The position numbers and the translations under genes were made by a program. 64,000 nucleotides of DNA, taken from NCBI RefSeq assembly GCF_045037415.1, contig NZ_CP173438.1; one strand, 5' to 3'. This DNA is from Escherichia coli. Its GTDB lineage: Bacteria > Pseudomonadota > Gammaproteobacteria > Enterobacterales > Enterobacteriaceae. Below are positions 3,651 through 23,583 of the stretch, piece by piece. Every line of letters begins with the position of its first letter. Position 1 is the first letter of the stretch. The notes under the pieces are model-generated. The model was not told the DNA's origin, did no database searches, and saw only the letters and a program-made list of their open reading frames with translations.

Positions 3651-5933
3651 ATGTCCGAGCTTAATGAAAAGTTAGCCACAGCCTGGGAAGGTTTTACCAA
3701 AGGTGACTGGCAGAATGAAGTAAACGTCCGTGACTTCATTCAGAAAAACTACACTCCGTACGAGGGTGACGAGTCCTTCCTGGCTGGCGCTACTGAAGCG
3801 ACCACCACCCTGTGGGACAAAGTAATGGAAGGCGTTAAACTGGAAAACCGCACTCACGCGCCAGTTGACTTTGACACCGCTGTTGCTTCCACCATCACCT
3901 CTCACGACGCTGGTTACATCAACAAGCAGCTTGAGAAAATCGTTGGTCTGCAGACTGAAGCTCCGCTGAAACGTGCTCTTATCCCGTTCGGTGGTATCAA
4001 AATGATCGAAGGTTCCTGCAAAGCGTACAACCGCGAACTGGACCCGATGATCAAAAAAATCTTCACTGAATACCGTAAAACTCACAACCAGGGCGTGTTC
4101 GACGTTTACACTCCGGACATCCTGCGTTGCCGTAAATCCGGTGTTCTGACCGGTCTGCCAGATGCTTATGGCCGTGGTCGTATCATCGGTGACTACCGTC
4201 GCGTTGCACTGTACGGTATCGACTACCTGATGAAAGACAAACTTGCACAGTTCACCTCTCTGCAGGCTGATCTGGAAAACGGCGTAAACCTGGAACAGAC
4301 TATCCGTCTGCGCGAAGAAATCGCTGAACAGCACCGCGCTCTGGGTCAGATGAAAGAAATGGCTGCGAAATACGGCTACGACATCTCTGGTCCGGCTACT
4401 AACGCTCAGGAAGCTATCCAGTGGACTTACTTCGGCTACCTGGCTGCTGTTAAGTCTCAGAACGGTGCTGCAATGTCCTTCGGTCGTACCTCCACCTTCC
4501 TGGATGTGTACATCGAACGTGACCTGAAAGCTGGCAAGATCACCGAACAAGAAGCGCAGGAAATGGTTGACCACCTGGTCATGAAACTGCGTATGGTTCG
4601 CTTCCTGCGTACTCCGGAATACGATGAACTGTTCTCTGGCGACCCGATCTGGGCAACCGAATCTATCGGTGGTATGGGCCTCGACGGTCGTACCCTGGTT
4701 ACCAAAAACAGCTTCCGTTTCCTGAACACCCTGTACACCATGGGTCCGTCTCCGGAACCGAACATGACCATTCTGTGGTCTGAAAAACTGCCGCTGAACT
4801 TCAAGAAATTCGCCGCTAAAGTGTCCATCGACACCTCTTCTCTGCAGTATGAGAACGATGACCTGATGCGTCCGGACTTCAACAACGATGACTACGCTAT
4901 TGCTTGCTGCGTAAGCCCGATGATCGTTGGTAAACAAATGCAGTTCTTCGGTGCGCGTGCAAACCTGGCGAAAACCATGCTGTACGCAATCAACGGTGGC
5001 GTTGACGAAAAACTGAAAATGCAGGTTGGTCCGAAATCTGAGCCGATCAAAGGCGATGTCCTGAACTATGATGAAGTGATGGAGCGCATGGATCACTTCA
5101 TGGACTGGCTGGCTAAACAGTACATCACTGCACTGAACATCATCCACTACATGCACGACAAGTACAGCTACGAAGCCTCTCTGATGGCGCTGCACGACCG
5201 TGACGTTATCCGCACCATGGCGTGTGGTATCGCTGGTCTGTCCGTTGCTGCTGACTCCCTGTCTGCAATCAAATATGCGAAAGTTAAACCGATTCGTGAT
5301 GAAGACGGTCTGGCTATCGACTTCGAAATCGAAGGCGAATACCCGCAGTTTGGTAACAACGATCCGCGTGTAGATGACCTGGCTGTTGACCTGGTAGAAC
5401 GTTTCATGAAGAAAATTCAGAAACTGCACACCTACCGTGACGCTATCCCGACTCAGTCTGTTCTGACCATCACTTCTAACGTTGTGTATGGTAAGAAAAC
5501 TGGTAACACCCCAGACGGTCGTCGTGCTGGCGCGCCGTTCGGACCGGGTGCTAACCCGATGCACGGTCGTGACCAGAAAGGTGCTGTAGCGTCTCTGACT
5601 TCCGTTGCTAAACTGCCGTTTGCTTACGCTAAAGATGGTATCTCCTACACCTTCTCTATCGTTCCGAACGCACTGGGTAAAGACGACGAAGTTCGTAAGA
5701 CCAACCTGGCTGGTCTGATGGATGGTTACTTCCACCACGAAGCATCCATCGAAGGTGGTCAGCACCTGAACGTTAACGTGATGAACCGTGAAATGCTGCT
5801 CGACGCGATGGAAAACCCGGAAAAATATCCGCAGCTGACCATCCGTGTATCTGGCTACGCAGTACGTTTCAACTCGCTGACTAAAGAACAGCAGCAGGAC
5901 GTTATTACTCGTACCTTCACTCAATCTATGTAA
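3651..5933 (+). CDS. pflB: Pyruvate formate-lyase (formate C-acetyltransferase)
   Basis: 760-aa ORF; glycyl-radical region RVSGYAVRF near the C-terminus; RBS aagaaggtagg upstream. Confidence 0.95.
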
Positions 5934-8110: not shown

Positions 8111-8423
8111 GAATTAAAACCGTGAGGAAGTTCAAATTTCATGCGCATCATGCCACCGCCAAAAACATTGTCAATGGGTGAAAATACGCGCATATCGCAG
8201 CGGCGGTATTATCGATTTATATTACTCATTCATAACGCTAATGCTGAAGAGACGATTAATCTCATCTGATTGTTTTTATTGATCTAACACAAATTTCATA
8301 CGCTTCGTTCAGTCGAAAAATTTCATGGTCACAGCAAACTCATATTTCCCGTCTATGCTTTCAGAGCAATGCATCGCGTCTGACCGATTTAGACGTACCA
8401 CTGACTCTCGAAAGGAGAAGAGG

Positions 8424-9050
8424 ATGACCAAACCGTATGTTCGTCTTGATAAAAATGATGCTGCCGTTTTGCTTGTTGATCACCAGGCTGGTTTACTTTC
8501 CCTTGTACGGGATATCGAACCCGATAAGTTTAAAAATAACGTGCTGGCGCTGGGTGACCTGGCTAAGTATTTCAACTTACCAACTATTCTTACCACCAGT
8601 TTTGAAACCGGTCCTAACGGCCCATTAGTTCCAGAACTGAAAGCACAATTCCCCGATGCACCTTACATTGCTCGCCCGGGAAATATTAACGCCTGGGATA
8701 ACGAAGATTTTGTAAAAGCTGTCAAAGCGACAGGTAAAAAACAGTTAATTATTGCCGGTGTGGTAACCGAAGTTTGCGTGGCATTCCCGGCGCTTTCAGC
8801 CATTGAAGAAGGGTTTGACGTCTTTGTCGTGACTGACGCGTCAGGGACCTTTAATGAAATTACCCGGCATTCGGCATGGGATCGCATGTCGCAAGCTGGT
8901 GCGCAATTGATGACATGGTTCGGCGTGGCGTGCGAGCTGCATCGCGACTGGCGTAATGATATTGAAGGACTGGCGACGTTGTTCTCTAACCACATTCCTG
9001 ATTATCGTAACTTGATGACCAGTTATGACACGTTAACGAAGCAGAAATAA
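8424..9050 (+). CDS. ycaC: YcaC isochorismatase-family hydrolase
   Basis: ORF 8325..9050; start at ATG 8424 with RBS aaaggagaagagg (MTKPYVRLDKNDAAVLLVDHQAGL...). Confidence 0.85.
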   Translation: MTKPYVRLDKNDAAVLLVDHQAGLLSLVRDIEPDKFKNNVLALGDLAKYFNLPTILTTSFETGPNGPLVPELKAQFPDAPYIARPGNINAWDNEDFVKAVKATGKKQLIIAGVVTEVCVAFPALSAIEEGFDVFVVTDASGTFNEITRHSAWDRMSQAGAQLMTWFGVACELHRDWRNDIEGLATLFSNHIPDYRNLMTSYDTLTKQK

Positions 9051-9085: not shown

Positions 9086-9949
9086 TTAATTTGCGACAGC
9101 CATCCCCACGGTCATATGCAAACCATAGAATACGCCACGACCGATTAATTCCCCTGCCAGAAGCAGAATGAATGATACAGAAAGTAGCGGAACCGCAGGC
9201 TGATAACCTTTTAGCTGTGGTGCAATCCACACGCACAGGGCAACGGCCAAAAGCACGATCCGCCAGGACATCAGCGCACCATAGTCCGGCACCAGCGCTG
9301 CGGCCTGCTGCACAGAGCTATGAATAGTCGCCAGCTCTGCGCCCTGCATCACTGACATCACGCCACTCACTACCAGTGCCAGAACAGAAATGGCTGGCAG
9401 CAGACGCATCGCCCAGCCATCGACGCCAGCCAGACTCAGCAACAGGTAACCCAGTAACGGGCCGCCCATAAACATCGTCAGGAAGAAGCCCATCGGTGTC
9501 CAGATGCTGTACCAGGTGGGTACTGTATCGATGCTGTTATACACACGCACCATCATCCAGACAAAGACTACGCCAAGAACCATCGTCACCACCAGCCAAA
9601 GCGTACGCAATGCCGGTGAAAGCTTTTTCAGCATTGCCAGCAACCAGCCGATGCCGCCTACAGCAAAAAAGATCGAACCGCTGGCGATTTCGTTACTGAG
9701 TGCTGAAGCCCCTACCCGATTGAGCGAGTTAAAAGCGCGCATCGGTGAACCAAGATGAAGCATAGAGGAGATAAAGCCAATGCCCATCAGCACCCATAAA
9801 CCCAACATGCAGGCGATAACACGCTGCTGGGCTTCTGCTCGCAGGTCGCCTTTGAGCAGCGCCAAAGCCAGAACGATAAAACCACCCGCGACACATTGCC
9901 CGAAGACCGTGAAGATCATCAGCGGCCATTCATGCCATCCACTTCCCAT
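9086..9949 (-). CDS. dmsC: DMSO reductase membrane anchor subunit
   Basis: ORF 9086..10012 trimmed to the MGSGWHEWPLMIFTVFGQ... start; polytopic membrane protein directly downstream of dmsB. Confidence 0.85.
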   Translation of the reverse strand: MGSGWHEWPLMIFTVFGQCVAGGFIVLALALLKGDLRAEAQQRVIACMLGLWVLMGIGFISSMLHLGSPMRAFNSLNRVGASALSNEIASGSIFFAVGGIGWLLAMLKKLSPALRTLWLVVTMVLGVVFVWMMVRVYNSIDTVPTWYSIWTPMGFFLTMFMGGPLLGYLLLSLAGVDGWAMRLLPAISVLALVVSGVMSVMQGAELATIHSSVQQAAALVPDYGALMSWRIVLLAVALCVWIAPQLKGYQPAVPLLSVSFILLLAGELIGRGVFYGLHMTVGMAVAN

Positions 9950-9950
9950 C

Positions 9951-10568
9951 TCACACCTCCTTCGGGTTTGCCAGATAGCCAGTGGTATCCCCGGTTGGGC
10001 GGCTGTTGGCATTGGGTTTGATCACAATATTCGGTTTGGTAAAGTGAGCTCGCGGCAACGGCGCAACGGCCGCCAGATCGCCATGTTTTTTACGCAGCTC
10101 GTCGATAGGGCCGAAATCCAGCGCCCGTAGCGGGCAGGACTCTACGCAGATCGGTTTTTTTCCCTCCGCAACACGGTCATAACAACCATCGCATTTGGTC
10201 ATATGGCCTTTCGTTTCGTTATATTGCGGTGCGCCATACGGGCAAGCCATATGACAGTAACGGCAGCCAATGCATACATCTTCATCGACCACAACAAAAC
10301 CATCTTCACGTTTATGCATCGCACCGCTCGGGCAGACTTTAGTACAAGCCGGATCTTCGCAGTGGTTACATGAAATCGACAGATAGTAGGCAAACACGTT
10401 CTGGTGCCAGACACCGTTATCTTCCTGCCAGTCGCCACCAGCATATTCATAAATGCGGCGGAAGCTGACTTCTGGCGTCAAATCTTTGTAGTCTTTACAA
10501 GCCAGCTCGCAGGTTTTGCAACCGGTGCAACGGCTGGAATCAATAAAAAATCCATACTGGGTTGTCAT
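9951..10568 (-). CDS. dmsB: DMSO reductase iron-sulfur subunit
   Basis: 205 aa with four ferredoxin-type Cys clusters (CTGCKTCELACK, CNHCEDPACTKVCP, CIGCRYCHMACP, CDGC...C). Confidence 0.9.
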   Translation of the reverse strand: MTTQYGFFIDSSRCTGCKTCELACKDYKDLTPEVSFRRIYEYAGGDWQEDNGVWHQNVFAYYLSISCNHCEDPACTKVCPSGAMHKREDGFVVVDEDVCIGCRYCHMACPYGAPQYNETKGHMTKCDGCYDRVAEGKKPICVESCPLRALDFGPIDELRKKHGDLAAVAPLPRAHFTKPNIVIKPNANSRPTGDTTGYLANPKEV

Positions 10569-10578
10569 CGGTTACTCC

Positions 10579-13023
10579 TTACACCTTTTCAACCTGAACA
10601 AGGTTTGTATGTGACGGATTCCCCTTAGCGAGAGGAGACGGACGTTGAGTGGTCAGTACGTTAATACAACCGCCCTTATCGACACGTTTTGTATCCGGGT
10701 CATACCAGGCACCTTCACCCAGTGCGACCACACCCGGCATCATTCGTGGCGTCACTTTCGCCTCAATATGAACCTCACCACGATCGTTAAAGATCCTGAC
10801 TTTATCGCCGTTGTTGATACCGCGTTTTTGCGCATCAAGCGGGTTGATCCACATTTCCTGACGGCAAGCTGCTTTCAGCACATCAACGTTGCCGTAAGTT
10901 GAGTGAACGCGAGATTTATAGTGGAAACCCGTAAGCTGCAGCGGATACTGTTTGTTCAGCGGATCCTGATAACTTTCAAAACCCGGCGTATAGATCGGCA
11001 GTGGATCGATCACATCACCTTCTGGCAATTCCCAGGTAGCGGCAATGTCAGCCAGCGCCTGCGAATAAATCTCAATTTTCCCCGATGGCGTGGTCAGTGG
11101 ATTTGCCTGCGGATCTTCACGGAAAGCTTTATAAGCAACGTGATGCCCTTGTGGGTCGCGCTTTTTAAAAATCCCCTGCTTACGGAACTCTTCAAACGTT
11201 GGCAGTTCAGGAATCGCTTCCCGCGACTGGGCATACAGATGCCGCATCCACTCTTCCTGGGTACGGCCCTCAGTAAACTGTTGCTCAACGCCAAGACGTT
11301 TTGCCAGTTCGCTGGTCATTTCATAGATGGTCTTACATTCAAAGCGCGGTTTAATCACCTGATCGTTGAAAATCACGTAAGACATATTCCCGCAGGATGC
11401 ATCCAGTGCAAAGTCCATCTGTTCTGAAGCGGTGCAGTCAGGCAGCAGGATGTCAGCATATTTCGCCGATGAGGTCATGTGGCAGTCGATAACCACAATC
11501 AGCTCGCACTTCTTATCATCCTGAAGGATTTCATGGGTACGGTTGATTTCAGAATGCTGGTTAATCAGGCAGTTACCGGCATAGTTCCAGATCATTTTGA
11601 TCGGCACATCCAGCTTATCTTTCCCGCGCACACCATCACGCAGCGCTGTCATTTCCGGGCCACGTTCAATGGCATCGGTCCACATAAACATCGAAATGCT
11701 GGTCTGGATCGGGTTTTCGAGGGTCGGCATACGGACAAACGGTAAGCTGTATGAACCTTCACGCGCGCCGCTGTTGCCTCCGTTAATACCAACGTTACCG
11801 GTCAGAATCGCCAGCATCGAGATAGCACGGGTTGCGATTTCACCGTTAGCGTGACGCTGCGGGCCCCATCCCTGGCTGATAAACGCCGGTTTGGTACTAC
11901 CGATTTCACGAGCCAATTTGATGATTTTGTCTGCCGGAACACCAGTGATTTGCGAGGCCCATTCCGGCGTTTTAGCCACGCCATCTGGCCCTTCACCCAG
12001 AATATAAGCTTTATAGTGACCATTTTTCGGCGCACTGGCTGGCAGTGTTTTCTCGTCGTAGCCAACGCAATATTTATCGAGGAATGCCTGATCCACCAGG
12101 TTTTCGGTGATCATGACATACGCCAGACCGTTAACCAGTGCGGCATCTGTTCCCGGACGAATAGGGATCCACTCATCTTCGCGCCCGGCACCGGTGTCGG
12201 TATAGCGCGGATCGATGATGATCATGCGAGCATTAGATTTCTGGCGCGCCTGTTCAAGATAGTAAGTCACCCCACCGCCACTCATTCGCGTTTCGCCAGG
12301 GTTATTACCAAACAGCACTACCAGTTTACTGTTTTCGATATCCGACGGGCTGTTACCATCTGCCCAGCCGCCGTAGGTATAGTTCAAACCTTCCGCAATT
12401 TGCGCGGAAGAGTAGTCACCGTAATGGTTCAGATAACCGCCGCAGCAGTTCATCAGGCGCGCGACCAGGGTATTTCCCGGCGGCCAGGAGCGGGTCATGG
12501 TGCCACCCAGCGTACCGGTGCCATAGTTCAGATAGATGGATTCGTTGCCGTACTCTTTGATCAGGCGCTGCATATTGGTCGCGATGATGTCGTAGGCTTC
12601 TTCCCAGCTAATGCGCTCGAATTTGCCTTCACCGCGCGCCCCGACTCGTTTCATCGGATATTTCAGGCGGTCGGGATTGTAAACGCGGCGACGCATGGAA
12701 CGACCACGCAGACAGGCGCGCACCTGGTGCAGGCCGTCATAGTTGTCATCGCCAGTATTATCCGTTTCAACATATTTGATTTCACCGTCCACGACGTGCA
12801 TACGTAGCGGGCAGCGACTACCACAGTTAACTGTACAGGCGCTCCAGATAACCTTTTCGTCTGATTTTGTTGGAATGGCGCTATCGACAGCGTGCGCAAT
12901 CCGACTAAAAGGTAATGTTAATGCGCTGCTGGCCATTGCCAGGCCGCCGATCGCTGTCGTTTTTACCAAACCACGGCGACTCACCTCAGCAGCCAATACC
13001 GCATCAGGGATTTTCGTTTTCAT
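10579..13023 (-). CDS. dmsA: DMSO reductase catalytic subunit (molybdopterin), Tat signal peptide
   Basis: 814 aa; N-terminal twin-arginine motif SRRGLVKT; molybdopterin oxidoreductase Cys motifs. Confidence 0.9.
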   Translation of the reverse strand: MKTKIPDAVLAAEVSRRGLVKTTAIGGLAMASSALTLPFSRIAHAVDSAIPTKSDEKVIWSACTVNCGSRCPLRMHVVDGEIKYVETDNTGDDNYDGLHQVRACLRGRSMRRRVYNPDRLKYPMKRVGARGEGKFERISWEEAYDIIATNMQRLIKEYGNESIYLNYGTGTLGGTMTRSWPPGNTLVARLMNCCGGYLNHYGDYSSAQIAEGLNYTYGGWADGNSPSDIENSKLVVLFGNNPGETRMSGGGVTYYLEQARQKSNARMIIIDPRYTDTGAGREDEWIPIRPGTDAALVNGLAYVMITENLVDQAFLDKYCVGYDEKTLPASAPKNGHYKAYILGEGPDGVAKTPEWASQITGVPADKIIKLAREIGSTKPAFISQGWGPQRHANGEIATRAISMLAILTGNVGINGGNSGAREGSYSLPFVRMPTLENPIQTSISMFMWTDAIERGPEMTALRDGVRGKDKLDVPIKMIWNYAGNCLINQHSEINRTHEILQDDKKCELIVVIDCHMTSSAKYADILLPDCTASEQMDFALDASCGNMSYVIFNDQVIKPRFECKTIYEMTSELAKRLGVEQQFTEGRTQEEWMRHLYAQSREAIPELPTFEEFRKQGIFKKRDPQGHHVAYKAFREDPQANPLTTPSGKIEIYSQALADIAATWELPEGDVIDPLPIYTPGFESYQDPLNKQYPLQLTGFHYKSRVHSTYGNVDVLKAACRQEMWINPLDAQKRGINNGDKVRIFNDRGEVHIEAKVTPRMMPGVVALGEGAWYDPDTKRVDKGGCINVLTTQRPSPLAKGNPSHTNLVQVEKV

Positions 13024-13322: not shown

Positions 13323-14315
13323 CTAATCGATGGACAGTTTATGGACACTTTCAGCCAGCGGATTAAAGTTGATCGCGTCCAGTAAAAAGTCCGGCGAAAA
13401 ATGAGCGTACGTCATTGTTTGCTGAATCGTTGCGTGCCCCAGGATTCGTTGCAACGTAACAATATTTCCGCCATTCATCATAAAGTGTGTGGCAAATGTA
13501 TGACGCATGACATGCGTAGCCTGCCCCTTCGGCAAATCCGGTTTCACCTCCTGAAGAATCTCCCGGAACTTCAGATAATCAACCTGATACAATAACCCCG
13601 TTCGACGGGTTTTAATCAGAGGCACGACCGAATCCGCCACAGGAACCGAACGGGATTTTCCGTTTTTGGTGTTAAAGAACGTCACCCGGTTGCCAACGAT
13701 ATGCTCTCCACGTAGTTCCGATGCTTCACTCCATCGGGCACCAGTAGAAAGACACAGAATGGCAACACGACGCACATCACCCTCCAGTCGCTCAAGAAGC
13801 CGTTCAATCTCATCATCAGAAAGAAAGGCCATCTCTGTGTTCTGAACTTTCAGTTTTCGTATACCGCGTACAGGGTTCGCGTTGTGAAAGACCTCAGCTT
13901 CAATCAGCACCGTGAACATGGTAGACAGTACGCATAAGTCACGATTAATACTGGACGGCATTAATCCGGCCTGTAATTTCTCTGACCGATATTCAAGCAT
14001 AAATTTTCGCGTCATCTGACTGGCGCGAGGATCTCCCATTTCACGAACAACCTTCCCTAGCCTAACCCTGTAGCTATCCCCGTAAGCCTGATTACGCCCA
14101 TCAAGCATCCACCACGCATCAAGCAGCTCTGATAATCGCCGCTGATCAGCTGGCTTAGCCTGCCATGGCTTGTCATGAAAGTTCTGTAACACATACTTCT
14201 CAAACTCCTGAGCCTTTGATTTCAGGGCAAAGATTTTTCGAATCCGCTTTCCTTCCGCCCCCTGCGGTCTGACATCGACCTGATAACGTCCGTCTTTGAG
14301 TTGCTTAATCGACAT
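13323..14315 (-). CDS. int: P2-type tyrosine integrase
   Basis: ORF 13323..14330 trimmed to MSIKQLKDGRYQVDVRP...; closely parallels the recalled P2 Int (MAIKKLDDGRYEVDIRP...), with ILCLSTGARW, HVMRHTFATHF and LGHATIQQTMTYAHF catalytic motifs. Confidence 0.9.
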   Translation of the reverse strand: MSIKQLKDGRYQVDVRPQGAEGKRIRKIFALKSKAQEFEKYVLQNFHDKPWQAKPADQRRLSELLDAWWMLDGRNQAYGDSYRVRLGKVVREMGDPRASQMTRKFMLEYRSEKLQAGLMPSSINRDLCVLSTMFTVLIEAEVFHNANPVRGIRKLKVQNTEMAFLSDDEIERLLERLEGDVRRVAILCLSTGARWSEASELRGEHIVGNRVTFFNTKNGKSRSVPVADSVVPLIKTRRTGLLYQVDYLKFREILQEVKPDLPKGQATHVMRHTFATHFMMNGGNIVTLQRILGHATIQQTMTYAHFSPDFLLDAINFNPLAESVHKLSID

Positions 14316-14384
14316 GATTAGCCCCTCCAACGGATAAATTAACTAAACACTCCTTGCGATATGTAATTCGCTCAATGTGTAGAG

Positions 14385-14726
14385 TCAGCCAACATTGCGG
14401 CCTGATCGGGGTGATTTTTGGGTAATACCGATTGAAACCTGATCGCCCTCCGACTGAATAGATCCATCAAGAGAGAGAGCCGGAGCAATCTGCCCGGCGA
14501 CAGGTAGCGTCTTATCTTTTATTAGCCACAGCATGTATTTTTCAAAGCGATCGACTTGCAGAACCGCCTCAACGATTTTTGCTCTAGCGTTCTTTTGCCC
14601 CGATTCGTAATTCCTTATGGTTGCCAAAGACAACCCAGTAATATCCGCAAACTGCTTTTGTGTTAACCCTTCCGCCTTACGTATCTGACGTAACTTTTTT
14701 GCGTAGTCTATTGACAAGATAACCAT
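14385..14726 (-). CDS. P2 C-like immunity repressor (HTH)
   Basis: ORF 14385..14780 trimmed to MVILSIDYAKKLRQIRKAEGLTQKQFADITGLSLATIRNYESGQ...; C-terminal GQIAPALS motif resembles recalled P2 C; divergent from the early operon. Confidence 0.75.
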   Translation of the reverse strand: MVILSIDYAKKLRQIRKAEGLTQKQFADITGLSLATIRNYESGQKNARAKIVEAVLQVDRFEKYMLWLIKDKTLPVAGQIAPALSLDGSIQSEGDQVSIGITQKSPRSGRNVG

Positions 14727-18112: not shown

Positions 18113-18408
18113 GCACCATCAACCACCAGAAGCTACGCGAACTGGCATTTGCCCTGCAACGAATGGCAACACCTCAAAAATTACTGGCATTTCGCGCAAT
18201 GCTCTCGCCGTCTGCTGCGCTGGCATTGCTGGATGAGCTGGAGCACGCCAGAACCACGGCTCCTGCCATTCGCCTGACGCTCCATCATGAAATCGCTGAT
18301 TTCTGCGCGACATTGGAGGTGCCAGGCGAACCGGAAACGCCGGAAGCAATACAGCAAGAGCTGCTGCAACGTATTGACAAGGTTTTTGATTTTTTTCTGA
18401 ACCAGTAA
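18109..18408 (+). CDS. Hypothetical phage early protein
   Basis: 99-aa ORF with ATGA overlap to the upstream gene. Confidence 0.4.
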   Translation: MSTINHQKLRELAFALQRMATPQKLLAFRAMLSPSAALALLDELEHARTTAPAIRLTLHHEIADFCATLEVPGEPETPEAIQQELLQRIDKVFDFFLNQ

Positions 18409-18730
18409 GAAACCAGAGCATGCACACACAAAAAAACCGCTTGCCATGCCGCAATCAGTCAGGTTACATTTCCGCTGCACCTCATAAAACGGGTGCCGGG
18501 TTTCGCAGCCTGCTGACTACACAAGCGCACAACCGCGCCAGCGGTTTTTTTGTGCGTACTGTATTGCCACGTTTTTTTCGCGTCAGAATTATGGCGGGGC
18601 GTACGGGGCCGACTTCGGTCGGGCCGGGTTCTTGTGTAGCCGGTACTGCGAACCTCGTACGTCTCGCCACCCACAGTTTCGCAGCTCTGGATGGTGAGTT
18701 TTCACAACTTACTACACAAGGGGCCACACC

Positions 18731-18961
18731 ATGGCAAACCGCAAACAGCACCGCGCTATCGCGGAGCGTCGTCACATCCAGACTGAAATCAACCGCAGAC
18801 TTTCCCGCGCATCACGCGTCGCGCAAATCATGCACATCAATATGCTGCATGAGCGCAGCCACGCACTATCAAACATTTATTCCGCCTCTGTTTTCAGCTA
18901 TCTGGCGGATGATCTGCACGAGCTTCAACAGCTCATCCAGCAGCAAAACAAACTCCATTAA
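18731..18961 (+). CDS. Hypothetical phage early protein
   Basis: 76-aa ORF after a 300-bp structured noncoding stretch. Confidence 0.35.
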   Translation: MANRKQHRAIAERRHIQTEINRRLSRASRVAQIMHINMLHERSHALSNIYSASVFSYLADDLHELQQLIQQQNKLH

Positions 18962-19033
18962 TTCCTGTTCCGGGCCTTTCCTGCACCTTGCGGCGGGAGG
19001 CCTTCGCACATCTGTAACAAGAGGATTGCCGCA

Positions 19034-19399
19034 ATGATTCTCGCCAACGACTTTCTTGAATACCTGCTCAATACAGAACGTGATCTTGCCGCTCGCGTGC
19101 GTGATCGTTATGACATGTACCTGAAATCCCTGCCTGTACCGCAGCTCGCTGACGGAAAGATTGTTATTGATGGTCGCTACATGATTGACAGCCACGAGGG
19201 AAATTACAGGCTTTACCGCATTGAAGGTGGCACCCCGTCCGTTATTGGCATTTACCAGCGCCCATCCTCTGCAATCGTCGATGTGATTGCCGACAGCATC
19301 CGCATCACACATCGCCATGCCGACACAGAAGACACCGTGCTGGAAATTCAGCGGCTGGCTACAGTCTGCCGCGACACCCTGAATGGCATGACGAAGTAA
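19034..19399 (+). CDS. Hypothetical phage early protein, immediately upstream of gene A
   Basis: 121-aa ORF; position is analogous to P2 B or the orf80-83 group. Confidence 0.4.
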   Translation: MILANDFLEYLLNTERDLAARVRDRYDMYLKSLPVPQLADGKIVIDGRYMIDSHEGNYRLYRIEGGTPSVIGIYQRPSSAIVDVIADSIRITHRHADTEDTVLEIQRLATVCRDTLNGMTK

Positions 19400-22304: not shown

Positions 22305-23264
22305 ATGAAAATTTGTATCGACGACGGCTCCACCAACATCAAGCTGGCATGGACTGAGAATGGCGAACGCCGCAACGCCATCAGCCCGAACAGCTTCAAG
22401 TCGGAATGGTCTGCGCCGTTCGGTGGCATGCAGCCCGCGAACTACATGCTTGATGGCGTGCGCTATGGTTTTGATCCGGTTAGCGATCGCTTTGTCCAGA
22501 CGACCGACACGCAATACCAGTACAGCGATGTGAATGTAATCGCCATTCATCACGCGCTGGTCAAATCAGGCATCACGCCACAGGAGGTGGATGTGGTTGT
22601 CACCCTGCCACTGAGCGAGTATTTCGACACAAACGCACAGCCGGACATGGCCAACATCAACCGCAAAAAAGCGAACGTTATGCGCCCGGTGGAATACCAG
22701 AACGGCGAAGCATTCACTATCCGTAACGTGCGGGTTATGCCTGAATCCATTCCGGCTGGCTTTAAAGCACTGGCTGACATGAGTCCGTTTGAATCCCTGC
22801 TGATTGTGGATTTAGGCGGAACCACGCTGGATGTGGCAAAGGTTCAAGGGCAACTGGCAGGTATCAGCCAGGTGTTTTGCGATCCACACGTAGGCGTTTC
22901 CCTGATGGCCGATGCCGTACTGTCGGTGATGGCCACTAACGGTATGCGCACCAGTCACCACATCGCCAATACCATTATCGAACATCGCCATGATGAAGCC
23001 TGGCTGCGCCAGCACATCCACAATGACGCGCATTACGCCAGCCTGATGGCGGTTATTCGTGAAAAGGAAGAAACACTGAAACAACGCGTGATCCGCTCGC
23101 TGGCGGTTTTTTCGGGTTACGGGCGGGTGATGGTTGTCGGTGGAGGGGCGGAGATTGTGGCACCCGCTATCCGCGAAGTCTGCGGAGTTAATGCGACTTT
23201 CATCGCGGACGGGGTGCCACAGTTTGCTCTGGTTAATGGGCTGTACGCAATGGACAAGGAGTAA
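22305..23264 (+). CDS. ParM/StbA-like actin-family partition ATPase
   Basis: MKICIDDGSTNIKLAW...ISPNSFKSEW...YSDVNVIAIHHAL...VVGGGAEI parallels recalled plasmid R1 ParM (MLVFIDDGSTNIKLQW...ISPNSFKREW...YSDVNVVAVHHAL...). Confidence 0.8.
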   Translation: MKICIDDGSTNIKLAWTENGERRNAISPNSFKSEWSAPFGGMQPANYMLDGVRYGFDPVSDRFVQTTDTQYQYSDVNVIAIHHALVKSGITPQEVDVVVTLPLSEYFDTNAQPDMANINRKKANVMRPVEYQNGEAFTIRNVRVMPESIPAGFKALADMSPFESLLIVDLGGTTLDVAKVQGQLAGISQVFCDPHVGVSLMADAVLSVMATNGMRTSHHIANTIIEHRHDEAWLRQHIHNDAHYASLMAVIREKEETLKQRVIRSLAVFSGYGRVMVVGGGAEIVAPAIREVCGVNATFIADGVPQFALVNGLYAMDKE

Positions 23265-23268
23265 ACCA

Positions 23269-23583
23269 ATGACGACACCAACCAGACGGATAAGTTTCTA
23301 TCTGAAGCCCGCCGCCGTCAAGAGTGAACAGGAGGCGTGCAATTACCTCGATAGCCTGCCAGCCTCCGAACGCAGCCGCGCGCAACGCGCGGCCTTTCTG
23401 GCTGGGCTAGCGCTCATAAAGCGCAACCCAGCATTTGCCTACTGGATGGCCGAATGGCCAGAGGACAACCTCCCCTTCAATACCGTTAGCATCAAGGAAA
23501 CATACCAGGATAATCAGCCTAGCGGAGTTGAATGCAATTTTTATAAAATAAAAAAGAATATTCAGACCTTATTCCCAGAATAA
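23269..23583 (+). CDS. ParR-like centromere-binding protein
   Basis: MTTPTRRISFYLKPAAV...LDSLPASERSRAQRAAFLAGLAL parallels recalled R1 ParR (RTIAFKLNPDV...LDSIPQGERSRLNRAALTAGLAL); directly follows the parM-like gene. Confidence 0.65.
   Translation: MTTPTRRISFYLKPAAVKSEQEACNYLDSLPASERSRAQRAAFLAGLALIKRNPAFAYWMAEWPEDNLPFNTVSIKETYQDNQPSGVECNFYKIKKNIQTLFPE

Follow-up and report, generated by a model that had tools for sequence, protein, structure and literature searches.

The c4 RNAs of phages P1 and P7 are the founding members of the Rfam C4 family. Mature RNAs of the C4 type are processed from longer transcripts, and in P1/P7 and P4 the 5' end is cleaved by RNase P. In the immI region of P1/P7 (c4 - icd - ant), the antisense elements a' and b' pair with a1/b1 and with a2/b2; b2 covers the ribosome-binding site (RBS) of the first downstream gene, and the anti-repressor is encoded downstream. 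The immunity region of P4 has the order P_LE - seqA - CI RNA/seqB - seqC - kil/eta - epsilon - alpha. The target of P4 epsilon is C, which is inactivated by epsilon (PMC8628076). The Salmonella prophage Gifsy-1 carries isrK, 'orf45'/STnc1160 and anrP in this order. Experiments on Gifsy-1 have demonstrated the isrK promoter (P_isrK), Hfq binding of IsrK, partial read-through of its terminator, a stable processed RNA from the C4 region (STnc1160) and a translationally silent anti-repressor (PMC4825925). Over-expression of IsrK favours induction of Gifsy-1. In the experimental study, the C4 region of Gifsy-1 was read as a 45-codon ORF with structure (PMC4825925).

We analysed a window of 64,000 nucleotides of Escherichia coli DNA (contig NZ_CP173438.1) and identified a stretch that is very probably an RNA immunity cassette of the P1 c4 / P4 CI / Gifsy-1 IsrK type in the early operon of a P88-like prophage (Table 1). 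Most likely, two catalogued phage regulatory RNAs act here to keep the anti-repressor gene of a P2-like prophage off. The stretch is real and well organised, and it adds a new member, so far without annotation, to a known type of RNA-immunity system. Its function is deduced, and the functional steps proposed below are based on homology with the characterised systems. The cassette is located 5' of replication gene A of the prophage (Xuanwuvirus, P2 family), and the gene order is promoter-like site, IsrK-like RNA, C4, epsilon-like gene, a 121-aa ORF and replication gene A.

Table 1. Features of the candidate immunity cassette and its surroundings (positions in the window)
Feature	Position	Strand	Remarks
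Through-ORF, 205 aa	18420-19037	+	Spans promoter, IsrK, C4 and a2/b2; epsilon-like gene out of frame
Sigma-70-type promoter (predicted)	18441-18470	+	Consensus scan; -35 TTGCCA 18441-18446, 18-nt spacer, -10 TACATT 18465-18470
IsrK / P4 seqA-like leader RNA	18477-18551	+	Rfam isrK RF01394, full-length
Leader hairpin 1	18477-18496	+	Part of IsrK-like RNA
Leader hairpin 2	18497-18512	+	Loop carries a1; followed by single-stranded linker with b1, then terminator
a1 target	18502-18508	+	UUCGCAG, exact complement of a' (script)
b1 target	18517-18525	+	CUACACAAG, exact complement of b'
Intrinsic terminator of IsrK-like RNA	18531-18551	+	AACCGC-GCCA-GCGGUU (stem 18531-18546) and U run; terminator scan
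C4 / P4 CI-type antisense RNA	18587-18674	+	Rfam C4 RF01695
C4 closing stem	18592-18608 with 18653-18669	+	Encloses both inner hairpins
C4 UUCG hairpin (helix 2)	18609-18622	+	CCGAC-UUCG-GUCGG
C4 hairpin 3	18623-18644	+	GCCGG/CCGGU stem, 12-nt loop
b' antisense element	18631-18639	+	CUUGUGUAG, in loop of hairpin 3
a' antisense element	18646-18652	+	CUGCGAA, single-stranded linker
a2 target	18678-18684	+	UUCGCAG, just 3' of C4, exact complement of a'
b2 target	18712-18720 (with SD, to 18723)	+	CUACACAAG, complement of b'; overlaps Shine-Dalgarno AAGGGG 18718-18723
Epsilon-like (derepression / anti-repressor) gene, 76 aa	18731-18961	+	Pfam PF25738 Derepression, 32.7 bits (cut-off 27)
121-aa ORF	19034-19399		No Pfam family above cut-off; sub-threshold DUF5405 match only

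P4-like satellites are helper-dependent and carry an alpha primase-helicase, whereas the element in the window is a complete P2-like myovirus. It is not a satellite because its replication gene A is of the P2 gpA type (PF05840, 437 bits) and not an alpha primase, because isolated myovirus genomes, which measure 33-37 kb, contain an identical region, and because the prophage encodes a P2 C-type repressor (35% identity) together with Cox. Three phage records match the region with 100% identity, and P88 does so with 88%. The same cassette is found in the same place in P88 and other Xuanwuvirus records (P884B11, vB_EcoM-569R5/705R2, PhiR44_2 and Citrobacter phiSM), and both the isrK and the C4 family match P88. 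The RNAs are annotated in none of these records, and no account of IsrK/C4 was found in the literature on P88-like phages. An Rfam search of the early region of phage P2 gave no match at E values up to 0.1, and the cassette is therefore not a general P2 feature. A search of the local ORFs against NCBIfam returned nothing. The 121-aa ORF was considered as a relative of P4 ORF151 or P2 Orf83, and has similarity to neither.

The C4 match is full-length (model positions 1-87 of 87, E = 7e-15), and the minimum-energy fold of the RNA is the family structure (-47.7 kcal/mol; z = -4.85 for the 80-nt core, 0 of 200 shuffles). In an alignment of 49 sequences, 85.5% of the cells were paired, both sides had changed in 19 of the 27 pairs and none of 500 shuffles was as good; helix 3 and the tetraloop were set by the search pattern and are uninformative for covariation. 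The RNA also has a conserved AAUUAUGG leader on the 5' side and a CCACC tail on the 3' side. Assignment to the C4 family is based on the score, the three-helix fold, the two antisense elements with upstream and downstream targets, and the overlap with an RBS.

The initial annotation of this DNA had described a structured stretch with a terminator-like and a UUCG-type hairpin. Both hairpins are present (ACCGC-GCCA-GCGGT at 18532-18545 with seven T at 18545-18551, found independently by the terminator scan, and the helix 2 of Table 1), and the 337 nt as a whole are more structured than chance (z = -5.0, 0 of 100 shuffles). A small regulatory RNA or an attenuator had been suggested, which was right in kind: the covariance-model scan proposed at that time found an IsrK/seqA-like terminated leader (65.2 bits, cut-off 50) and a C4/CI-type antisense RNA (83.2 bits, cut-off 45), and among related phages the hairpins are conserved while the antisense targets covary. 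What had been overlooked were the families, the division of the hairpins between two RNAs and the link of the a/b elements to the next RBS. Nothing supports the protein-binding site that had been offered as another choice. The stretch might also be a simple intra-operon terminator or attenuator with chance hairpins and no trans-acting RNA, as a terminator is present and the P2 early operon also has a putative internal terminator. We give this explanation almost no credence in view of the two covariance-model matches (E = 1e-11 to 1e-15), the structural covariation and the co-variation of the targets.

The leader RNA resembles IsrK in several respects. Its predicted start, at about 18477, is the first base of the isrK match, and the terminator hairpin is the 3' helix of the isrK model. 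The promoter-like site aligns with those of P4 (P_LE region), Gifsy-1 (P_isrK) and six other loci, which share a TTGACA/TTGCCT -35 and a TAnnnT -10; promoter and terminator in the window are consensus-level matches. The isrK family is found directly 5' of C4 in P4, P88, Gifsy-1 and 6 of 13 sampled IMG/VR loci, and isrK or c4-a1b1 occupies this place in 7 of the 13. Membership is indicated by the score, by the RNA's own upstream promoter-like site and 3' terminator, and by the adjoining C4 with its a1/b1 targets. The IsrK part alone is thermodynamically unexceptional (z = -1.0), which is a point against the cassette; the support for this part comes from the covariance-model match and not from the fold energy. 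The c4-a1b1 family (RF03163) scored 20.5 bits at 18464-18516, below its cut-off of 46.7, which likewise counts against the cassette. The a1/b1 sequences are still present in this stretch, which is covered by the isrK match. A second promoter-like site, TTGCCA-17-AATTAT (18564-18592), is unlikely to drive C4 directly because its -10 is the conserved AAUUAUGG leader of C4, because the start would lie inside the closing stem and because the -35 in P88 is TCGCCA.

With Gifsy-1 the window shares tandem isrK and C4 matches followed by an anti-repressor-type gene, as well as a promoter and a terminator; read-through is a feature of Gifsy-1 (PMC4825925). The two differ in that Gifsy-1 encodes the Rha/Ant-like AnrP in a lambdoid prophage, whereas the window has an epsilon-like gene in a P2-like phage, and the link to AntQ toxicity belongs to Gifsy-1 only. 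From the Gifsy-1 work it might be proposed that the IsrK-like RNA is the main trans regulator, which turns on translation of the downstream gene by remodelling an inactive read-through transcript, and that the C4 region acts in cis only, as a part of this inactive structure. Reporter assays demonstrated this mode for Gifsy-1, whose layout is the same, and IsrK supplied in trans gave more than 100-fold activation (PMC4825925); in the window, the isrK match is likewise full-length and is accompanied by a promoter-like site and a terminator. However, a stable processed C4-region RNA (STnc1160) exists in Gifsy-1 itself, and an element acting purely in cis would hardly account for a deeply conserved, covarying C4 fold and for duplicated targets, and we regard this proposal as rather unlikely. 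The two models are compatible if IsrK titrates C4.

All complements of the a/b elements are exact, over 9 nt for b'/b1/b2 and over 7 nt for a'/a1/a2. Of 108 unique related loci, 106 have an exact complement (7 nt or longer) of their own a' upstream (a1 type), against 8% in the permuted control, and 105 have one downstream (a2 type), against 5%. The corresponding counts were 73 for the b1 type (control, 6%) and 87 for the b2 type (control, 5%), and in many cases b2 extends into a Shine-Dalgarno of the form GGA/GGAG. The same loci contain 47 distinct b' loops, and their targets vary in step with the loops. The specificity of P88 is another one (b' CUGUAGUUG, a' GUGGAAA), and its targets agree with it: 21 of its 34 differences from the window in the 254-nt RNA region fall inside the six a/b sites, which occupy 60 nt with margins, and the change in the stem at 18595/18666 is compensatory. 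At least seven a/b specificity combinations are present within the P88-like group. The duplex energies, calculated for the window alone, were moderately better than those of shuffles (7 to 106 of 1000 were as good), which speaks against the cassette.

The geometry of the window is the same as that established for P1/P7 immI. The differences are the IsrK-like terminated leader of the window and its epsilon-like gene, which stands in place of icd and ant; neither of these has a homologue here. P4, too, resembles the window in several respects. The C4 family matches CI with 74.9 bits and the isrK family matches the seqA leader with 60.8 bits; the promoters align, the antisense elements are two-part with upstream and downstream targets, an epsilon homologue is present and a replication gene follows further on. 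Unlike P4, the locus has no Kil homologue and no nested eta/kil ORFs in frame over the RNA region, where kil would start at the b2/seqC RBS, and b2 lies on the RBS of the epsilon-like gene itself, whereas in P4 isrK-C4 is followed by kil and then by epsilon. The window also differs from P4 in its A-type replication gene, its C/Cox protein switch and its a/b sequences. Since the module is homologous to the P4 immunity region, it could be asked whether the cassette chiefly defends a helper-type phage against P4-like satellites, with C4 cross-pairing to silence the epsilon and alpha genes of the satellite, an idea raised speculatively in PMC3632133. This role is very unlikely: no combination among the 58 (b', a') pairs sampled occurs both in P88-like loci (epsilon class) and in P4-like loci (Kil class), and the two classes have only one a' element in common.

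The gene that b2 would control is related to P4 epsilon. The two proteins share 29% identity (E = 4e-9), and P4 epsilon itself scores 168 bits on PF25738. Among the relatives, the first gene 3' of b2 is typically of an anti-repressor type (epsilon-like, Rha, AntA or Bro-N). The epsilon-like gene differs between the window and P88 at 3 of 231 nt. The proteins are 97% identical and the C repressors only 38% identical, and the supposed binding of the epsilon-like protein to this phage's C repressor is a further point that counts against the cassette.

On the basis of the characterised systems, the cassette would act as follows. In the lysogen, the C repressor would silence the early promoter while the internal promoter stays active. 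The terminator would end most transcripts from the latter, giving the IsrK-like RNA, and the read-through transcripts would be processed to a stable C4 RNA. C4 might then pair with a2/b2 of read-through transcripts or of transcripts from a superinfecting phage. This pairing would block translation of the epsilon-like gene and cause polarity or premature termination before gene A. Immunity would thereby gain a second layer, which is sequence-specific. The IsrK-like RNA, through its a1/b1 sites, may compete for C4; a rise of IsrK relative to C4 would therefore free the anti-repressor and favour induction. Because the early operon is interrupted midway by a terminator and an antisense block, lytic growth would need a bypass, and this counts against the cassette.

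A P4-style mode of action is an alternative. C4 would mainly provoke premature (Rho-dependent) termination through a1/b1 (seqA) and a2/b2 (seqC) and not occlude an RBS, and ribosomes on the through-ORF 18420-19037 of early-promoter transcripts would override it in the lytic cycle, as with eta in P4. Among characterised homologues, P4 CI, seqA and epsilon come closest, and read-through of eta/kil in P4 is translation-dependent (summary in PMC10111431). Around the C4 core, 82 of 107 unique related loci have kept the frame of the through-ORF open, compared with 18 and 14 for the other frames. The ORF terminates at an ATGA that contains the start codon of the next gene in 27 of 29 P88-like loci, which is weak evidence since these loci are closely related. 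Since its ATG (18420) precedes the internal promoter, the ORF would be translatable from early-operon transcripts only. On the other hand, the overlap of b2 with the Shine-Dalgarno of the epsilon-like gene is just as compatible with translational repression, no Kil homologue is present, and the through-ORF and the downstream gene are in different frames in epsilon-class loci (26 of 26; 0 in frame), unlike in P4-type and Rha-type loci. In addition, an open frame over the epsilon-like gene is only borderline unusual, as it was retained in 5.9% of the synonymous recodings of that gene. We regard the P4-style mode as less likely than not.

The initial annotation had also stated that the stretch contains no convincing ORF. 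This was correct insofar as 18420-19037 resembles translated RNA, but the dismissal may have been too quick in view of the conserved open frame. The through-ORF matches Pfam Phage_ASH with 26.0 bits, exactly the cut-off, over residues 16-108, and the P4 eta ORF, which spans seqA-CI-seqC, matches the same family with 82 bits. The through-ORF was rejected as a homologue of P4 Eta: no significant BLASTP similarity was found, and Phage_ASH, the only link, tracks the RNA region. The through-ORF may be an eta-like regulatory ORF, and the RNA region may be translated as in P4 eta (summary in PMC10111431). It is a different matter to propose that the product is a functional Ash/Eta-family protein and that the RNA structures are incidental. 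Besides the match at the cut-off and the conserved frame, the PGAP label for the region ('similar to ash family protein') would agree with such a protein. However, the isrK-C4-a2/b2 segment is precisely what the Pfam match spans, covariation keeps base pairs and not amino acids, the hypervariable a/b elements vary together at three places, and the ORF shares its sequence with a bona fide gene in another frame. The classical 'cI protein' ORF of P4 is likewise now regarded as an RNA (PMC3632133, PMC10111431). A functional protein with incidental RNA structures is thus extremely unlikely.

The cassette opens no new class of mechanism. Rather, it provides a testable function for a stretch that in RefSeq/GenBank is blank, annotated as a hypothetical protein or marked as a remnant of the "ash family", and it shows that RNA immunity logic of the P4/P1 type operates, or at least is encoded, in P2-family phages, with a gene homologous to the P4 anti-repressor next to it. 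The a/b elements offer naturally orthogonal antisense/target pairs and also a heteroimmunity marker that is missed by protein-based phage typing. We suggest, tentatively and with more doubt than confidence, that a whole helper-class genus (P88-like, Xuanwuvirus) carries the hallmark module of P4 satellites, namely RNA immunity with an epsilon anti-repressor. Should the epsilon-like protein inactivate C repressors of the P2 type, a two-layer switch may follow, in which C/Cox is gated by a programmable antisense RNA; such a switch could explain why P88 is inducible and classical P2 is not. Alternatively, the epsilon-like protein may awaken heteroimmune P2-like prophages. In that event, the module would also be a candidate evolutionary source of the helper-derepression machinery of P4, and the conserved ORF that crosses the two RNAs and the epsilon-like gene would serve, by being translated, as an anti-termination device. 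The stretch is common in the species: a 352-nt query had a match in 1282 of 5426 complete E. coli genomes, about a quarter.

The DNA between the stop codon at 18408 and the ATG at 18731 encodes members of two known RNA families. The initial annotation had described this stretch as structured and noncoding, with a terminator-like and a UUCG-type hairpin. Both hairpins are present between these two codons (see table), and the first was also picked up independently by a terminator scan. The predicted fold of the 337-nt region is much more stable than folds of its shuffled versions (z = -5.0, 0/100 shuffles). An 80-nt element at 18591-18670 is the main source of this signal (-47.7 kcal/mol, z = -4.85), and the fold of the upstream 75 nt alone is unexceptional (z = -1.0). 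When Rfam was scanned with the whole window using the curated cut-offs, as had been proposed as a check, full-length isrK and C4 antisense RNA matches were obtained within the stretch; the c4-a1b1 model was sub-threshold at 18464-18516 (20.5 bits vs 46.7). Since these are two separate full-length matches, the two hairpins are parts of different RNAs: the hairpin with the T run terminates an IsrK-like RNA, and the one with the UUCG loop forms helix 2 of C4. The element has all of the testable defining features of both families. Existing Rfam models detect it, and comparable observations exist for other prophages. We found no literature describing isrK or C4 in P88-like phages.

Features of the isrK-C4 stretch and the gene that follows it
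Feature	Coordinates	Strand	Evidence or location
Sigma-70-type promoter-like site, TTGCCA, 18-nt spacer, TACATT	18441-18470	+	consensus scan
isrK (RF01394)	18477-18551	+	65.2 bits vs cut-off 50, full-length
a1	18502-18508	+	exact a' complement; loop of second hairpin of IsrK-like RNA
b1	18517-18525	+	exact b' complement; IsrK-like RNA linker ahead of terminator
Hairpin ACCGC-GCCA-GCGGT + seven T	18532-18545	+	sequence; terminator scan
Second promoter-like site, TTGCCA-17-AATTAT	18564-18592	+	between IsrK terminator and C4
C4 antisense RNA (RF01695)	18587-18674	+	83.2 bits vs cut-off 45, full-length
Hairpin CCGAC-UUCG-GUCGG	18609-18622	+	sequence
b' CUUGUGUAG	18631-18639	+	within 12-nt loop of C4 third hairpin
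a' CUGCGAA	18646-18652	+	linker 3' of C4 third hairpin
a2	18678-18684	+	exact a' complement, downstream of C4
b2	18712-18720	+	exact b' complement, downstream of C4
Epsilon-like gene	18731-18961	+	PF25738 (Derepression), 32.7 bits vs 27

The complementarities between the antisense elements of C4 (a' and b') and their targets were confirmed by script, and the ORF starting at 18731 has a Shine-Dalgarno sequence, AAGGGG (18718-18723), that is partly covered by b2. Transcription from the upstream promoter-like site is predicted to begin near 18477, where the isrK match starts. Its -35 (TTGACA, TTGCCA or TTGCCT) and -10 (TAnnnT) hexamers align in the window, P88, P4, Gifsy-1 and six metagenomic relatives, and experiments on the Gifsy-1 counterpart showed that isrK and the genes downstream are expressed from it (PMC4825925). 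Judging from sequence, the second promoter-like site is probably no promoter: its -35 is TCGCCA in P88, and its -10 is the conserved AAUUAUGG leader of C4.

To examine the antisense model across the family, IMG/VR was searched with a pattern of the conserved C4 core, which gave at least 120 viral contigs. The matches listed include at least 108 unique loci with adequate flanks and at least 47 distinct b' loops; these counts are not independent events, since the pattern fixes part of C4 and many loci are related. Among the matches listed, 106 of 108 loci had at least 7 nt upstream that are exactly complementary to their own a', and 105 had such a complement downstream; for b' the corresponding numbers were 73 and 87. 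The positions of the complements were consistent between loci, and swapping loops between loci as a control gave only 5-8%. Conservation of the hairpins among relatives, another check proposed initially, was borne out for C4: in an alignment of 49 sequences, 85.5% of cells were paired and 19 of 27 pairs changed on both sides. The covariation score of the family structure was equalled by none of 500 shuffles and all slid controls were lower, helix 3 and the tetraloop being uninformative because the search pattern fixes them. Between the window and P88, 34 differences were found in the 254-nt RNA region, including one compensatory stem change (18595/18666), and 21 of them lie within the six a/b sites, where about 8 would be expected by length alone (60 nt with margins); the 231-nt epsilon-like gene has 3. 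At the level of sequence, this concentration in the a/b sites is the signature of a putative immunity-specificity swap. The epsilon class alone contains at least seven (b', a') combinations.

The arrangement resembles known systems. In P4, the C4 model matches the CI RNA (74.9 bits) and the isrK model the seqA leader (60.8 bits), and downstream come the seqC sites GUGAGAA and UUCACAGG, ahead of the start codon of kil, and then epsilon. In Gifsy-1, the order is isrK (79 bits), C4 (69 bits) immediately after it, and anrP; the C4-match region has been treated as "orf45" and a processed stable RNA, STnc1160 (PMC4825925). Earlier papers (PMC3632133, PMC10111431) report that P4 seqA and CI are picked up by the isrK and C4 models of Rfam and that isrK/C4-like pairs occur in lambdoid prophages and PICIs. 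Among 13 diverse IMG/VR loci, C4 was above cut-off in all 13, with isrK or c4-a1b1 above cut-off directly upstream in seven. Two metagenomic viral contigs carry matches to the type II hammerhead ribozyme (RF02276, 52-69 bits vs 37) within a few kb of their isrK-C4 pair (L004 3532-3594; L022 2177-2269 and 4771-4835). Unlike a P4-like satellite, however, the host element has neither kil/eta nesting nor an alpha primase and is a complete P2-like phage, and it is without the icd and ant of P1. Because the features of both RNA families are present and those of the satellite and of icd/ant are absent, the element represents RNA immunity of the P4, P1 and Gifsy-1 kind in a different genomic setting. 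It is a member of their RNA families and, by analogy, would work like their immunity systems.

The host phage is P2-like. The region is 100% identical in three records (vB_EcoM-569R5, vB_EcoM-705R2 and a P88-like ST131 prophage) and 88% identical in phage P88 (P2-like, Xuanwuvirus). According to the records' annotation, an integrase, a C-type repressor, cox and small early genes precede the stretch, and a "derepression protein", a 121-aa ORF, replication endonuclease A and ParM/partition genes follow. The repressor shares 35% identity with P2 C (E = 2e-23), Cox is matched by PF10743 and gene A by PF05840 (437 bits); an Rfam search of the P2 early region gave no such RNA. The ParM and plasmid partition/stability genes after gene A (window about 22305-23580; 9926-11204 in PV468777, from whose annotation they are taken) hint at a plasmid-like maintenance option, reminiscent of the P4 plasmid state.

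The epsilon-like protein shares 29% identity (E = 4e-9) with P4 epsilon, which scores 168 bits on PF25738 and, according to PMC8628076, inactivates the helper phage repressor. Among sequenced phages, it occurs in nine Xuanwuvirus-type records only. The window phage and P88 share it at 97% identity, whereas their C repressors (14385-14726, - strand, in the window) are only 38% identical. Both repressors have a C-terminal AGQ(I/V)xPAL...SGxxxG motif in common with P2 C; if the epsilon-like protein targets C, a conserved C feature must be recognised. In the related loci listed, the ORF that comes first after b2 is epsilon-like in 30 (the window included), P4 Kil-like (57-64 aa) in 24 and Rha (PF09669) in 18, and in the remainder AntA, Bro-N, Tad2-like or another small protein. 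These are mostly anti-repressor-type or toxic early functions, which fits C4-type RNAs as a brake on such genes. The Tad2-like gene (PF11195, Thoeris anti-defence 2-like) takes the place of an anti-repressor directly after C4/b2, where it would be under their control, in four IMG/VR contigs (L005, L008, L009 and L042); the L005 protein scores 29.5 bits vs 25, and the others were grouped with it by BLAST.

While this anatomy is observed in the sequence, the most likely mechanism is inferred from characterised homologues. In the lysogen, the early promoter would be silenced by the C repressor and the internal promoter would stay on. The majority of its transcripts would end at the terminator as IsrK-like RNA, and C4 would be made by processing of read-through transcripts. 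Pairing of b' and a' with a2/b2 would mask the Shine-Dalgarno of the epsilon-like gene and would cause polarity or premature termination ahead of the 121-aa ORF and gene A; the route of repression may be translational, in P1/P7 style, or by termination, in P4 style. A superinfecting phage of the same a/b type would be hit in trans by the same pairing. The competing a1/b1 sites of the IsrK-like RNA would titrate C4, and therefore the threshold at which the anti-repressor is released would depend on the IsrK:C4 ratio. In Gifsy-1, IsrK drives activation and induction, which is consistent with this ratio model (PMC4825925). On a tentative reading, the RNA-gated module with the epsilon anti-repressor, associated with the satellite, would belong to helper-class phages of the P2 family themselves; such a module might serve self-induction, P88 being inducible with mitomycin C, or act on heteroimmune P2-like prophages.

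The ORF at 18420-19037 (+), which spans the stretch and is out of frame over the epsilon-like gene, had been dismissed as unconvincing, perhaps too quickly. Its match to Pfam PF10554 (Phage_ASH; 26 bits, exactly the cut-off) covers residues 16-108, the isrK-C4-a2/b2 segment, and the P4 eta ORF (8171-8812, -) matches the same family with 82 bits over seqA-CI-seqC; the family is therefore in effect a translated RNA region. P4 epsilon matches PF25738 only and not PF10554, so the PF10554 'epsilon' marker of a P4-like satellite survey (PMC8628076) tracks the RNA immunity region instead. The dismissal is weakened by the frame itself: of the 107 unique loci listed, 82 have it open from -100 to +100 around the C4 core (other frames, 18 and 14). 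Among the loci listed, it is in frame with the downstream gene in 18 of 23 Kil-type and 13 of 14 Rha-type loci, matching the nested P4 eta/kil arrangement described in PMC10111431. In none of 26 P88-like loci does it share the frame of the epsilon-like gene; it crosses this gene and ends in ATGA on the next start (19034) in 27/29, these loci being close relatives. When the epsilon-like gene is recoded synonymously, the frame stays open by chance in 5.9% of cases. The open frame, the downstream framing and the ATGA ends suggest that the frame matters. Given the close relationship of the P88-like loci and the chance level, translation of the ORF is nevertheless considered rather unlikely. The ORF could be an eta-like translated regulatory ORF or a case of dual coding, and its translation would let early-promoter transcripts override the terminator and C4.

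Of 5426 complete E. coli genomes, 1282 contain a match to the 352-nt query. The stretch carries no annotation in RefSeq, the phage records examined have no RNA annotation of it, and one tags it "similar to ash family protein" (PGAP). In the P88 record (KP063541), a hypothetical CDS (5033-5221, -) lies exactly over the isrK and C4 RNAs and is most likely a spurious gene call. At the prophage/chromosome junction, between the dmsA 5' end (13023) and the integrase gene (13323-14330, -), the window also has an STnc130 match (RF02084; 13114-13248, +; 137 bits vs cut-off 55).
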